Notes under the pieces: model-generated
Seen by the model: only the letters and a program-made list of their open reading frames with translations
Told to the model about the DNA's origin: nothing
Databases searched by the model: none
Made by a program: the position numbers and the translations under genes
Assembly (NCBI GenBank): GCA_963823665.1
Contig: CAWGMQ010000003.1
Location: forward strand, 1,216,001 to 1,280,000
Reading direction: 5' to 3'
Origin: an uncultured Planctomycetota bacterium
Lineage (GTDB): Bacteria > Planctomycetota > Planctomycetia > Isosphaerales > Isosphaeraceae
DNA length: 64,000 bases
Part shown: positions 45,271 to 52,851 of the stretch, piece after piece
Numbering within the stretch: position 1 is the first letter of the stretch
Layout of the letters: the number at the start of each line of letters is the position of its first letter

Positions 45271-45460
45271 TCCAGGTCCCTCCTGAAGCTCGACTGGGTT
45301 CATTGATGTTAACCCAACGGCGGATGCCCGACAACGCACGAACGGCCGTCACTTCTGATCGTAGTCACAGCCTCGATTCAGGTGGCGACACTGAGCATCT
45401 ACACCCGATTGAGGGCAAGGGGATTCCGCCGGGTCGCCTTGGGGGATCGCTCCCCCAAGG

Positions 45461-47880
45461 GCCGGGTAAGGAGGTGACGTTACCGCCACCCCCTCCCCTC
45501 AGAACTGCACGTGAAAGTTTCCCTTCATGCAGCTCAAGCCTTCACGAACGCCCCTCGCAGGACGCGGCCGCTTTCGTCAGTCGTTCTTGGACATGGATCT
45601 GCCGATGACAGTTGGCATGCAACAACTCCAGGTTGTCGGCTGTGCCAGAACCGCCCCGGCTGCGCCAGATGCGATGGTGGAGATGCAAGTCTTCCTCTGC
45701 GATCCGCAGCGGTTGACCACAGACCACGCATCGTCCCTCTTGTTCCTTCCATAAGTATTCGATCCGACCCCGACCTGCCAGCGTTTGGCTCAGTTGCCAA
45801 CCCAGTCGTGCTTCCAGGTACAGTTCCCACTTCGGATCGTAGGGATTCACGTCGCTCCGGATCTTCACATAACGAATGATCTTCACTTTGGCTGCTTCCA
45901 TCAACTGGATCGGCCGGCCTTGGCCTTTCTGGTCAAACAGCGTACCGGTGAAGACCCAGTGGCGGTAACCGTCTTGCTGGAAGTATTTCTCCTTGATCCA
46001 CCTCCGGCCTTTGTTCTGGTGCCGTCGTCGACACCAACGCCACAATTTCTGGAAAATCCGGTGATCCACGTACGTAAAAGTGCGCTTGCTCGCCGCGTAA
46101 CGGTGGTACATGGTCCAGCCCTTGATCTGCTGATTCAAACGCCAGATCATCTCTCCTGCCGTTAGGCTGCCCGAGCCGTCGATCGTTTCCTGTATCTTGT
46201 TCAAGAACGTCTTCACGTTTCGCAAGGACGGCTTGGTGAACACCTTGCCGCAGCGATAGCGTCGCACATTCTGCCCCAAGAAATCGAAGCCATCCTCCAC
46301 ATGCGTGATCTGGGTTTTCTCGTGGGAAAGTTCCAAGCCGCGTTCCTTCAAGAAATGAGCCACGAGAGGTTGCACTTGGTCACGGAGGAGTTCCTTTGAG
46401 ATGCCCGTGATCAAGAAGTCATCCGCATAGCGGACCAGGTGGACTTTAAACTTCCGTTGTCGCCCGTGCTTCTCGGCGAACTGTTCCGCCAACAGCCGTT
46501 GCAGTCCATCCAGAGTCCAATTCGCCAGGACGGGTGAAATGATCCCGCCTTGAGGTGTTCCTTCCGTGGTGGCGAACCAGGCGTGCTTCTCCAGGAAACC
46601 CACTTTCAGCCATTGCCCGAGCAACTGCCGGTCCATGGGGACGTGCGTCAAGAGCCAGTCATGACTGATGCGATCAAAGCAAGCTTTGATGTCCCCTTCG
46701 AGAATCCATGCTGGACCGCTCCGATTACCCAAGACAATATGAGATTGTTCCAGGGCGTCGGCACAACGACGTTCCAGCCGAAAGCCATAGGAATGGCCGT
46801 CGGCTCGAGATTCCGCAATGGGATCGAGGCCTAGCAAGTATAATGCCTGCATGGCTCGATCTGACATGGTGGGAATTCCGAGAGGACGTCGCTTGCCGTT
46901 GCTTTTGGGAATGTACACCCGGCGGAGCGGTTGCGGTTGGTAACCGTGCCGACGCAGAGTGCTGAAAGCAGCCGACTTGGCTTCCGGTGTGTTCCAGAGA
47001 ACTCCGTCCACACCGGGAGTCTTCGCACCCGAATTACTGATGACTCGCAAAATGGCCAGGGCCCGGCCACTGAACGAGTGCGTGAGCAGATAAACCAGAG
47101 CCTTGACCTTATTCCATCTGCCCTCCGCAACAGCCTTCACGATACGCGCCTGGAGCCGACGGACTGTGCGCCAGACTTTCTTCCATTCGATGGAGTGCCA
47201 GTCGGGCGTAAGCTCGGGAGCCGCACCAGCAAGCATTTCTGCCGCCGACATATCTGCTTGTCTCCCTGAGTCGGTTGGCCAAGGTTCTCTCGTGACGGAA
47301 CACCTGAGGGAAGTCGGCACCGCTTTCGCGGTGAGGGGATGTCGTCCGTGGGAGGACTCACCCTCTATCCGATCGACTACCGAACGGCATTGGCTTGCTC
47401 CCTCATCCTCCACCCGCCGCCCCATCGGCGACGCCTTACGACGGTCCTACCCCGAAGGGAGGGCGACGGGCTTACCACGTTCCACGGATGAATCACGGAT
47501 GGTTTAGGCTCTGCCTCTCCGCCGGTGGCTCGGATGACGACGACAGGGGATGGGAAATCCCACTGTACCTGGCCACGTACCTTTTTGGTTCAAGCCTCTC
47601 AGCGCCTTTGGCTTGTTGGATCTCACGACGTTTATCGGCAGTTCACCTGGATTAGCCATGCCATCCACCCCTGGCCCCCGACCGCATTGGCGTTCGCAGT
47701 CGCCGGATTCCCTCACGGGATATCCAACCACCCGAAGGTGAGGTTACGTTGTCCCAAGAGCTTCGCACGGTCGGATTGCTCCGGCCGCACGTCCTGGTAG
47801 GGTTCCGGTGGTCGTACATCGGGTTATGTCCTGGTTGCAAATCCAGTCATAACAGACTCATCCGCAGCTTCGTTTCGCGA
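45461..47880 (-). mobile_element. Inner group II intron (CL-type with HNH endonuclease)
   Basis: 5' TCGCGAAACG at 47880; DV GAGCTGCATGAAGGGAAACTTTCACGTGCAGTTCT; DVI ends ACCCGGC at 45461; EBS1 and EBS2 match the flanking sequence. Confidence 0.9.
45542..47251 (-). CDS. ltrA: Group II intron reverse transcriptase/maturase with HNH endonuclease (inner intron)
   Basis: RVT_N (W..I.W...[11 protein letters not shown]), TPGVDG, RPLGIP, PQGG, YADD, C-terminal CVVC..HH..NL.LLH.NCH. Confidence 0.95.
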
Positions 47881-47927
47881 CTCCCACAGATCCGGGCTTG
47901 CCCAATTAAGGCACCCGGCTCGTCATG

Positions 47928-49278
47928 TCACTTGTTCGCTACGAGACGGCATACTGAGTGGATCGCAATCGCTGCCGGAAGCGGTTTATGCTTCAGGAAC
48001 CGAGCGAACCGTTCCCATGTCATCCGACGGCCGCGCCGCGGCGCGACAGCCAGTGCTGCCAGAGCCAGGTGGCACCACTGCGAAACCGTGACAACATTTT
48101 GGAGTTGCCGGTGATTCCGTAGTAGGCATAGTGGCCTAGCAGTTTCTGACCTAGTATCCGGTGCTGCACCTTGAGCGGTTGATGGCGATTTTGCGACACC
48201 AATCCGCCAACGTTCGCAGGCTGCGGCGAAATCGACTTTTGGACGTCTTGCGCTTCACCACCCAGCGACCCTGCCGGGAGCGACCCCAGTAATGGGTGAA
48301 CGCCAGCAGGTCGAAAGTCCCTGGTGGAGTTCGTGTGGGTCTGCCTTCCGGTTTGGGACGGTCCGATGGCCGCTCGAACGGCACCAGCCGCGTCTTGTCC
48401 GGGTGGATGGTCAAGCCGTACTTCTCAAAGCGTTTGGGCAACACATTCATCACACGCCGTGCGTCGGACTCGCATGAGAAGACCATGACGAAGTCGTCCG
48501 CATAGCGGATCAAGAACGATCTGCCCATCATCCGAGGCTGAACCTCCCGCTCGAACCACTCGTCCAGCACGTAGTGCAGGAAGATATTCGAAAGGATCGG
48601 GCTGATCACACCCCCTTGTGGCGACCCCATTTCGGGGTGCGTAACGCACCCGTTCTCGAAGACGCCCGCATTGAGCCATTTGCCGATGAGCCGGAGCAGC
48701 ACTCCGTCTCGCACCCGACGCTTGAGGAAGTCGCGTAGATGGCCGTGGTCAATCGTGTCAAAGAACTTACGAATGTCCACATCCACTACCCATCCGCCCT
48801 TCATGTTCATCGTCTGTTGCCACAGGCTCTCTGACGCAGTGTGTGCCGATCGCTCGGGCCGGAAGCCATGCGAGCAGTTCTTGAAGTCCTGCTCGTATAT
48901 CGCCTCCAGAACCATCACGACAGCACGCTGGAGCACTTTATCCTCGAAGGTCGGGATTCCCAGTGGCCGGGTTTCGGTCGCTGAGCCTGCCTTGGGGATA
49001 TGCACTCGCCGCACAGGCGGTGCGTGGTACGTACCGGACTTGGCTCGTTCCAGCAGCGACCGTAGGTTCGGGACCAGGTTCGCTGCGTAGGCCTCGCCAT
49101 CTTGTCCGTCTACGCCCACCGCCCCGTCTTGGCGGGTCCGGTAGTAAGCTGTGAGCAGCCAATCGAGGTCGATGAAGTGCCCCAGGGATGTGAATCCCAT
49201 CTCCGGGCTTCGCCGAGCGAGTTCCGCTATCCGTTGTTGTTTCGTGGACACGTCCACGGGTTCCGATGCACCCGCCAT
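47928..49278 (-). CDS. ltrA: Group II intron reverse transcriptase/maturase without En domain (outer intron); apparent frameshifts near 48190 and 48035
   Basis: GVDG, RPLGIPT, PQGG, YADD; continues in shifted frames as GHYAYYGITGN...WLSRR...TWERF...ANK*. Confidence 0.9.
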
Positions 49279-49869
49279 GTTTCCCTCCAACGGTTGTGTG
49301 ACATGGCGTCTCCTTCCCTCCACCGGGTCCCTCGGAGTGGTTCCCCGGCTTCAACGGTACTACGAGACGCTCCGACTCCCATCCGCCCCTTTCGCCGCAC
49401 TTCGTTGCCTTCGTGTGGCGATACCACCCTTGCGTCCTGTTCGCTCCCAGCGACCCGACGCGGGGTCGTGGGCCGGGGAGTTGGTATTCCGGATCCCGAG
49501 CCGGAAATGTCAGTGGAGACGGATGGGGCTCTCAGGTTCCCGAGCAACCCTCGCGTCCCTGCGCCATGTTCTTGGACCCCGGCAGGACCGAACACGCCAG
49601 GCCATTGCGGCGTGTCGACACGGCCCCCGCTTGTGTCTACAACGGAGGCTCCCACGATGAGTATTTCGGGGCTCGATAGCATGGCATGGAGACTCGCTGT
49701 CTACGCTTCGCAGTGAGGGTCACCCCTCCCCACGCAAGACTTGCTTCCGGCTGCCGGCCAGGCTCTGCCGGGCGGGATTCGTTAACCCGCAGGGTCGCGA
49801 TGAAAGGTTTCTGTGTTTCGAGGCACTTCCTCCTTTCTCGAGCTTTTCCTGACGCAAAGACACCCATCG

Positions 49870-50168
49870 TTTTGTCGAGGGCGTTGACTTCCTATCCACG
49901 GCGAATGATTTTTGACAGCTTGGAGATCCATCTCAGCCACCGGCCGACCCACCGATCCCGCCGAATCAAGGAAATGCGGCCGAACCCCGTTGCCGGGTGG
50001 GAACTGCGGCTCGGTGACTATCGGGTCCTCTATGATGTGGATGATCAGAGGCGCGTCGTCCAAGTCCAGGTCATCGGTGAGAAAGTCGGCAACCGACTCA
50101 TCGTGCAAGGCGAGGAGTATTCCGCCCATGAAAGTGATCGACCTGAACGAGGCGAAGGCGAATCTTGA
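49870..50168 (+). pseudogene. RelE/ParE-family toxin, 5'-truncated at the intron target motif
   Basis: IKEMRPNPVAGWELRLGDYRVLYDVD; no credible start after the AGACACCC motif. Confidence 0.7.
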
Positions 50169-50319
50169 GGGTTATGCCGAAGAGTGCCAACAATCGCCGG
50201 TGATTGTCACGATTGGAGGGATCCCGAAATTCGAGCTCGTCCCGATCCACACGGACGATCCCGAGTTCATCGACCGCCTGCTCGAAGAGAACGAGACGAG
50301 GGCCGCTCGAAAGATCTGA
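50128..50319 (+). CDS. Phd/YefM-like antitoxin (probably 3'-truncated)
   Basis: MKVIDLNEAKANL..YAE.....PVIVT..G.P..ELVP; overlaps the toxin end. Confidence 0.7.
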   Translation: MKVIDLNEAKANLEGYAEECQQSPVIVTIGGIPKFELVPIHTDDPEFIDRLLEENETRAARKI

Positions 50320-50469: not shown

Positions 50470-50903
50470 GACGCGACACTCCGCGGCATTCACCCGTTGG
50501 GGTCTATCGTGCGTCGCCACTTACACTGTATACCAAGGCGGCTGGCATCGGTAGTTCGGTTGGACGGCGAGCGAGGCTGTGAGCAGCCGGGCTCCGCGCC
50601 TGGGTTGGCGCAACGTCAAGATCGGTTCGTGACACCTTTGCTGGGAATTCGATTGGATTCGAGGCCGGCCAGTGATGTTTCCTTCGCCGGCGCGGCAAGT
50701 GACGAACTCGTCGCATCGGTCGGCGCGACGCACGCGGCCGAGCGGGGCCCAGATACCCGCTGTGTGCCGGTTGAAGTGGATGCCCTAAACTGCCCCGATG
50801 ACCGGGTGTTTGCCTTGCTCCGCGCCTTCCTTACTTGGATGAGTGGGTGTCTGCCTTCCATTCCCCCCAAAGGTGGGTGTCTGACATCCGGTGTCTGACA
50901 TCC

Positions 50904-52710: not shown

Positions 52711-52730
52711 TCGAGCTTTTCCTGACGCAA
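52711..52730 (-). mobile_element. 20-nt remnant of the outer group II intron 5' end
   Basis: TGGGTGTCT|TTGCGTCAGGAAAAGCTCGA, identical to the junction at 49857. Confidence 0.8.
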
Positions 52731-52851
52731 AGACACCCACCTTCTGCGCAGCGTCGGACACGCGCCTTCTTTTTGTCGAAATGACGGGCGGCAGTGCCGT
52801 GGTTCTCCGCCGAACGTGTGGGCCGCGAATTCATGGATGCGGGGCCGTGAC

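Follow-up and report, generated by a model that had tools for sequence, protein, structure and literature searches.

Architecture of the nested introns

The window analysed here is a 64-kb stretch (64,000 nucleotides) of an uncultured Planctomycetota bacterium (GenBank assembly GCA_963823665.1, contig CAWGMQ010000003.1), whose genome is called G000 below; L numbers denote fetched loci and other G numbers related genomes. Two group II introns were found on its minus strand in an intergenic region, one nested in the other. The inner one sits in domain VI (DVI) of the outer, or host, intron, directly beside the catalytic domain V (DV). Judging from its sequence, the inner element appears to be an intact, recently copied CL1-like intron, and its exon-binding sites (EBS), located in domain I (DI), match intron-binding sites (IBS) at the end of the host DV and the base of the host DVI. 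Table 1 lists these elements together with the open reading frames (ORFs) of the two reverse transcriptases (RTs).

Table 1. Features of the twintron and its flanks, in window coordinates
Feature	Position	Strand	Evidence
5' half of short palindromic repeat GGGTGTCT (3' half 45427-45419), outer intron insertion site	49858..49868	-	same 5' flank in host copies, empty repeats nearby
Outer (host) intron, 5' part: DI-DV and first 5 nt of DVI; starts TTGCG	47881..49857	-	Rfam group-II-D1D4-6 at 49567-49781; flank alignment gives 5' end
Candidate outer EBS1 AGACAC, complementary to 5' exon GTGTCT 49863-49858	49633..49638	-	complementarity only; loop position in Rfam model
Outer RT/maturase ORF without endonuclease domain; frameshifts near 48190 and 48035	47928..49278	-	TIGR04416, 300 bits
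Outer DV, AGC triad, 3' arm ends GGAUC	47889..47921	-	fold of rebuilt piece; empty copy agrees
Outer DVI, 3' part, predicted branch A45434, 3' end GGC	45428..45460	-	identical in empty copy at G000:C7; fold
IBS2a (C-14)	47894	-	covariation; definition from passages of PMC8643678
IBS2 GGATC (-13..-9), 3' arm of host DV	47889..47893	-	covariation, pairing scan
IBS1 TGGGAG (-6..-1), linker end and basal 5' strand of host DVI	47881..47886	-	sequence, covariation
Inner intron, 2,420 nt, IIB1/CL1-like, non-canonical ends UCGCG...GGC	45461..47880	-	Rfam D1D4-7 (47674-47823) and Intron_gpII
EBS2a (G)	47624	-	Watson-Crick with -14 in 0.91 of 32 unique EBS sets; 0.40 shuffled
EBS2 GATCC	47618..47622	-	mean 4.16/5 pairs in 32 sets; 2.01 shuffled
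ID3 loop: delta T47557 and EBS1 TTCCCA (47556-47551)	47551..47557	-	mean 5.19/6 pairs; 2.61 shuffled; stem-loop
EBS3 (G), partner C+1 at 45460	47517	-	top column of blind scan, 25/28 Watson-Crick
Inner RT/maturase/HNH ORF, 569 aa, intact	45542..47251	-	TIGR04416, 343 bits; C-terminal HNH-type match
Inner DV/DVI, 3' arm CAGTTC	45461..45537	-	RF00029, 63.4 bits

An earlier reading made from the letters alone (the sequence-only reading) had held that removal of 45461-47880 rebuilds the outer DVI, and its coordinates proved exact throughout. Excision of the inner intron in silico restored the DV/DVI pair, and the resulting 96-nt piece folded at -51.5 kcal/mol. The restored host sequence exists uninterrupted at G000:C7:960478, with a single difference in the DV loop. 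The locus thus contains a complete intron within an intron whose removal restores the host, that is, a group II twintron. The sequence-only reading had placed the insertion at the DV/DVI junction. It does lie beside DV, but the insertion point is in DVI itself, on the 5' strand, where a single base pair separates it from the loop below, which holds the predicted branch A45434; it is thus not strictly between the two domains.

The inner intron starts with UCGCG and ends with CCCGGC. Three hosts carry A instead of G at -1, which makes the EBS1 match fully Watson-Crick. Because of these hosts the boundary cannot slide, and a G start for the inner intron was ruled out. The outer 5' end at 49857 is supported by aligned host copies, in which TTGCG follows directly after the repeat GGGTGTCT. 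Rfam models detected both DIs as well as the inner DV/DVI. RF00029 scores host-type DV/DVI poorly (of the identified host-type copies only C11:703692 was listed, below the cut-off); hence the empty copy, and not this model, was used to validate the rebuilt domain.

The outer intron has six full-length copies in G000. Its ORF is intact at 450 aa in two of the others, where it ends at DV with no endonuclease region. Short-read contigs contain both bases missing from the ORF in the window; since two copies also have the intact ORF, the frameshifts in the window are probably assembly errors. As to class, DI matched Rfam D1D4-6, and the nearest plasmid matches were ltrA genes without a class label. 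The host may belong to bacterial class E, although these matches do not fix its class. The host family ends its DV with GGAUC instead of the usual GGUUC, and GGAUC is the family-wide consensus. Empty copies of the consensus target were present in 36 of 120 related genomes.

The best PDB match of the inner RT was 6ME0 chain C (E 7e-181, 606 bits; the other six matches at most 137 bits), which is the CL1 protein of a IIB1 intron (PMC8643678; published work is drawn on here through passages of the cited papers). By this match and the domain profile, the protein is an RT/maturase with a C-terminal endonuclease, nearest to CL1 proteins. The inner intron also has the IIB1/CL1 recognition elements as defined in passages of PMC8643678, namely EBS1, a 5-bp EBS2 and an A-flanked EBS2a two bases upstream that pairs with -14, and its EBS3 pairs with +1, the column concerned being Watson-Crick in 25 of 28 introns. 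The canonical ends GUGYG...AY are absent, UCGCG...GGC standing in their place. Among relatives the first and penultimate intron bases covary (G..A in 9/34, T/C..G in 22/34). The intron TeI4h likewise begins with T (PMC2882425), so non-canonical ends do not exclude IIB1.

Recognition of the host site and its repeated occupation

A total of 66 genome and 80 metagenome loci with RT relatives were examined. After removal of rows whose 5' end could not be mapped, 46 distinct DI rows had a legible 5' flank, and their homologous loops gave 32 unique EBS sets; the secondary structure of the inner DI was based on a minimum free energy fold of the 5' 640 nt. As shown in Table 1, EBS1, EBS2 and EBS2a paired with their own flanks far better than with shuffled ones, and 0 of 5,000 shuffles reached the observed values for EBS1, EBS2 or EBS2a. 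This result is not a formal probability because the EBS sets are related, though their targets differ widely. To locate EBS3, every DI column was compared blindly with the +1 base across 28 introns, three apparent chimeras and three near-duplicates having been excluded; G47517 ranked first (25/28) and the runner-up reached 14/28. EBS1 variants CTCCCA and CCCCCA track matching variants of the target site. Among 127,958 window positions on both strands, only two pair with EBS1, EBS2 and EBS2a when G-U is allowed, and one of these is the junction itself.

The pairing of EBS1 TTCCCA with IBS1 TGGGAG, proposed in the sequence-only reading with the hexamer in a stem-loop, was therefore borne out by covariation, which also confirmed the loops. 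Its EBS2, AGATCC against GGATCT, stood in part: the 5-mer GATCC pairs with GGATC by covariation and by the definition in passages of PMC8643678, while the additional A47623:T-8 pair is unsupported, because A47623 is a flank that is invariant across the intron family whatever base stands at -8. EBS2a (G47624/C-14) and EBS3 (G47517/C+1) add two pairings to those proposed before.

A search of G000 returned 55 candidates, of which 40 were scored; these included seven full copies of the inner intron and one 216-nt 3' remnant at 96%. All seven full copies are mutually identical, and each follows the host motif GGATC-TG-TGGGAR, at the same host position. Three of their hosts lack an ORF. The other four are full-length and represent two haplotypes, which differ at 6 positions at most 140 nt from the site, and the ORF-less hosts show 95% and 71% DI identity to the window host, so that at least four host types are occupied. 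Identical inner introns in differing hosts therefore indicate at least four independent insertions, an argument previously applied to Thermosynechococcus twintrons (PMC2882425).

The same site is used beyond this genome. Each of the five closest RT relatives (93-98%) has a host DV, a host DVI or both next to it, whereas at 80-89% RT identity most relatives have different EBS and unrelated flanks. A DVI-like hairpin follows 9 of 89 mapped 3' ends, belonging to these five and to four that could not be used (L107, L138, L214 and L215; 82-84% RT identity). The latter lack a usable 5' junction and were left out of the lineage count; the EBS loops of L214 do not match the host site. L274 was rejected as a member, being truncated with unreadable EBS. 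A DI search of 120 family genomes, combined with EBS2 and junction patterns, added G061, G005, G038 and G087. Outside G000, 14 of 15 readable 5' junctions lie at the host site (L081, L147-L149, G005, G087, G038 and seven in G061); the hosts in G087 and G038 are decayed, and EBS loops were unreadable in three of the 15. With G000 included the count is 21 of 22. In G061, seven of eight copies occupy the site, in hosts of 70-72% RT identity. Matches to a looser junction pattern, in 71 of 121 genomes, were mostly fortuitous; the pattern served only as a pointer to G061:C74 and did not enter the counts. A phylum-wide DI search of 400 sampled genomes gave no match outside G000, with scoring so shallow that absence is not implied. 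The named RT relatives come mostly from soil Planctomycetota assemblies, which makes a soil bacterium of this phylum the likely host organism.

The relatives that use the site in other genomes are up to 16% divergent in DI. One G061 intron (L267, G061:C20) is 82-88% alike in DI, while its RT is only 58% identical and is placed elsewhere in a FastTree phylogeny of 41 chosen rows; the target-reading RNA has therefore been paired with two RT types. The converse mosaic was also seen, in relatives at 80-88% RT identity with DI only about 65% alike. The DI tree requires two changes of site label, and site use may have had a single origin. The sisters L158, L222 and L238 combine a similar DI with different EBS and target non-intron sequence. 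The inner intron does not nest in itself, because the 3' arm of its own DV, CAGTTC, has no match to its EBS2; self-homing was ruled out on this ground.

The suggestion of true homing into a conserved ribozyme element is thus supported by all seven copies here, by 14 of 15 junctions elsewhere and by EBS loops validated through covariation. The further suggestion that the inner intron is an intron-specific parasite holds for 21 of 22 junctions, but one copy in G061 (L315, discussed below) makes the element sequence-specific rather than strictly intron-bound.

Probable retrohoming, alternative accounts and splicing order

The position of the inner intron, the match between its loops and the target, its repeated independent insertion and the conservation of the site across the lineage are observed. 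In view of the match between the EBS loops and the DV end and DVI base of the host, we consider that the inner intron likely retrohomes into host introns that lack an endonuclease, and that the host likely must lose the invader to splice well. We give this explanation as a whole, including the nature of the inner element, a probability of roughly 85%. By established group II biology, the inner intron would be transcribed as part of the host RNA, form a lariat ribonucleoprotein and reverse-splice into its DNA target, after which HNH cleavage and target-primed reverse transcription would follow. Reverse splicing and target-primed reverse transcription are described in passages of a review (PMC4424553). 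The site may be favoured because GGAUC is found throughout the host family and would not be freely changeable by the host, and each new host copy would offer a fresh landing site in non-coding repeats. The insertion probably costs the cell little, because hosts sit in a short palindromic repeat and the window copy lies between genes.

Several observations weigh against this explanation. The basal GGG/CCC helix of DVI and the branch A45434 remain intact despite the insertion; folding gave the basal G-C pairs a probability of 0.57 in the rebuilt host and, with the inner intron present in full, of about 0.38 with their register shifted. EBS3 is mismatched in the lineage members L148, L267 and L269. 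L315 lies outside any intron, in sequence that resembles the target, where EBS2 aligns in register and EBS1 is offset by one base; specificity is therefore for a sequence, which host introns happen to supply. Intron position 2 is C in the G000 copies and T in 47 of 48 aligned DI rows, so the present activity of the inner intron is uncertain. L005 and L006 join the 5' part of an ORF-less host to the DVI of a full-length host; this can occur by real recombination through the identical 2.4-kb inner copies, with swapping of DVI, or by assembly mis-joins. Lastly, the perfect target at C7:960478 is empty, as are 17 more G000 sites that match every EBS position. EBS pairings alone thus do not predict occupancy.

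The most durable alternative is that one or two chance insertions occurred and then spread with the host, by mobility of the composite twintron or by gene conversion between homologous hosts. Over about 1,977 nt the window and C11 hosts do differ in just 2 columns, C3a and C6b share the second host haplotype, L005 and L006 look chimeric, and the basal DVI helix could still form; composite mobility is also named as a possibility in passages of PMC2882425. However, identical inner introns occur in hosts whose differences extend to the very edge of either junction, one host family being only 71% alike; in other genomes, relatives with as much as 16% DI divergence occupy this site; and the EBS1 changes CTCCCA and CCCCCA follow site variants. 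As the sole cause this account is refuted, and as the principal one we consider it unlikely.

Ordinary homing to a short motif that is commonest in introns by happenstance, without lasting specialisation, differs from retrohoming into host introns in degree more than in mechanism. The ectopic L315 would fit it, as would the two site-label changes in the DI tree, with one origin not proven, and the non-intron targets of L158, L222 and L238; since these three share a similar DI yet have other targets, retargeting is easy in this intron family. Against it stand the 21 of 22 junctions at the host site, an EBS set kept over 16% DI divergence and two RT types only 58% identical, and three EBS-perfect G000 sites outside host-intron matches that are empty. 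We regard this account as very improbable.

An apparent twintron created by mis-joined repeats is scarcely credible. In its favour, identical 2.4-kb repeats are present, the host ORF carries homopolymer-type frameshifts and no contig covers the whole twintron stretch. Against it, one short-read contig from run X1 (623 nt) and one from run X2 (314 nt) each cross the 5' junction with a single mismatch, junctions of this type recur in independent assemblies, and a mis-join would not yield a 13-base EBS match. Run X1 may derive from the source sample. For the 5' junction, the bridging contigs likewise answer the concern, raised with the sequence-only reading, that the junction might be misassembled. 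In an X2 contig the inner 3' end runs into a different DVI. Among the contigs listed for runs X4 and X6, none bridged a junction by at least 31 bases.

Returning to retrohoming into host introns, the inner intron would likely splice before the outer one. This order is considered likely by analogy with the Trichodesmium twintron, for which sequential splicing was demonstrated (PMC4649490); nested introns that splice as a single unit also exist (PMC8393795). The stricter proposal of the sequence-only reading, under which the outer intron cannot branch before the inner one is removed, is not borne out by the fold, since the basal DVI helix and the branch A persist. Contigs of RNA runs X8, X11, X12 and X17 contained related empty hosts, and they are uninformative on splicing order because the empty form also exists as DNA.

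A candidate escape allele, known systems and neighbouring elements

The 18 empty G000 sites matching every EBS position carry A (14 sites), T (one) or C (three) at -8. The 14 A-8 sites are 13 ORF-less hosts and one remnant, and the three C-8 sites lie outside host-intron matches. All seven occupied sites in G000 have T-8. Hence occupancy among EBS-perfect G000 sites is 0/14 for A-8 vs 7/8 for T-8. By matched patterns, empty hosts number 14 A to 1 T in G000, compared with 8 A to 96 T in the 120 related genomes; these counts are sums from pattern-match tables, and the pattern misses the C7 copy. Also empty is one full-length G000 host whose IBS2 is altered. The 13 A-8 hosts (L037-L046 and L048-L050) are ORF-less copies of 700 nt, 95% alike in DI, and consist of nine near-identical copies and four more divergent ones. 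They represent a recent expansion of a form derived from the outer intron, and the full-length RT presumably mobilised them in trans.

It is a tentative possibility that these data reflect an intron-on-intron arms race, in which the invader is locked on the catalytic core of its host and, in the one genome here where it occupies nearly all exact targets, the expanded A-8 variant, altered at the first free base past DV and also carrying C at +7, is an escape allele. The pattern comes from a single genome and perhaps one expansion, the 13 A-8 hosts differ at +7 as well, a decayed G038 copy (L239) follows an A-8 flank, and A-8 occurs in 7 of 44 targets of the wider family, all of which weigh against escape. 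Strict immunity of A-8 sites is ruled out by L239 and by the 7/44 family targets. If the escape account were true, the invader would brake the spread of the host intron, and recombination between invader copies would swap DVI among host families.

Homing of introns into introns has been published before. The introns B.th.I3, M.a.I5, UA.I3 and P.l.I2 home to RYADD codons of other RT genes (PMC2504315), and arrays of intron-into-intron insertions are described for Methanosarcina (review PMC4424553). Like the inner intron, the RYADD homers recognise, through EBS1 and EBS2, a strongly conserved region of other group II introns, which gives rise to twintrons and to a standing supply of homing sites. 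Their target is protein-coding (the RT active site) and their RT lacks an endonuclease, whereas the inner intron targets the ribozyme core (DV 3' arm and DVI base) and is CL1-like with HNH. With its non-coding DV/DVI target and HNH-type C-terminus, it falls outside the RYADD-homing lineage.

In Thermosynechococcus elongatus, F3 (TeI3) within F1 (TeI4) shares with the present case identical inner introns in diverged outer ones, an invader of IIB1/CL1 type and one copy outside an intron (PMC2882425). That inner intron is ORF-less, a close relative of its outer intron, and lands in domain IV between two start codons (same passages), whereas ours has its own RT, belongs to a class other than that of its host and lands beside DV. 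The bacterial group II twintron Tr.e.I7/I8 of Trichodesmium likewise has an inner intron of IIB1 type, but it occupies one locus, the inner intron lies in domain I, a gene is interrupted, and repeated homing is not reported in the passages of PMC4649490. The Euglena psbF twintron likewise has an internal group II intron within domain V, in the catalytic region, but is an organellar, degenerate and single fixed case and not a mobile bacterial lineage with matched EBS (passages of review PMC8393795). Compared with the IIB1 CL1 introns EcI5 and Th.e.I3 (TeI4h), which have EBS1, a 5-bp EBS2, EBS2a pairing with -14, EBS3 and an RT with endonuclease (PMC8643678), the inner intron differs in its target site, its first bases UCGCG and its GGC end.

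A full-text literature search found no bacterial lineage aimed at the DV/DVI base, although subscription papers and the curated intron database were mostly outside its reach, so a prior listing is possible; the same holds for the passages seen of PMC12584367, PMC7049729, PMC3534033, PMC5572947, PMC2396441 and PMC8919778. The observation itself is well supported, and the landing site at the DV/DVI base carries an already published habit over from protein-coding motifs into the ribozyme core, the region whose alteration would cost a host intron most. The system offers a natural setting for asking whether a large insertion beside the branch site blocks branching or merely slows it, and whether selfish elements evolve resistance to one another in one genome, for which the base at -8 is a candidate. 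The nesting also explains why DV/DVI-based surveys miss hosts of the present kind; one pipeline is noted not to catch the outer introns of twintrons (PMC8919778). The biology of the host cell is unchanged, since the site is intergenic.

L107:1836-6160 is a triple nesting: another intron splits the RT of a host-type intron at its YADD codons, and the DVI of that host-type intron follows the 3' end of a CL1-like relative. Judged from their flanks, more distant CL1-like relatives lie in a conserved transposase-like coding spot or just before a tRNA-like sequence (L111, L115 and L219-L221; L116 and L121).

Host remnants that start at the DV 3' arm and keep DVI were found at G000:C3:129322, G000:C5:1041388 and L239:1480-1498, a shape that fits the expectation for 5'-truncated reverse transcription; the one in L239 flanks the decayed invader. 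The palindromic repeat, GGGTGTCT followed by a GACATCCC-like half, often forms stuttered tandem arrays and recurs in the window at 50860-50900 and 52718-52740, and a host 5' fragment lies at about 52737. An ORF near L008 and L128 resembles what we take to be a Y1/REP-associated transposase. The twintron is bordered on one side, at about 49960-50319 on the plus strand, by a two-gene unit that we assume to be a RelE-type toxin with a Phd-type antitoxin, and on the other, at 45339-43619 on the minus strand, by a presumably subtilase-like gene broken over two frames.

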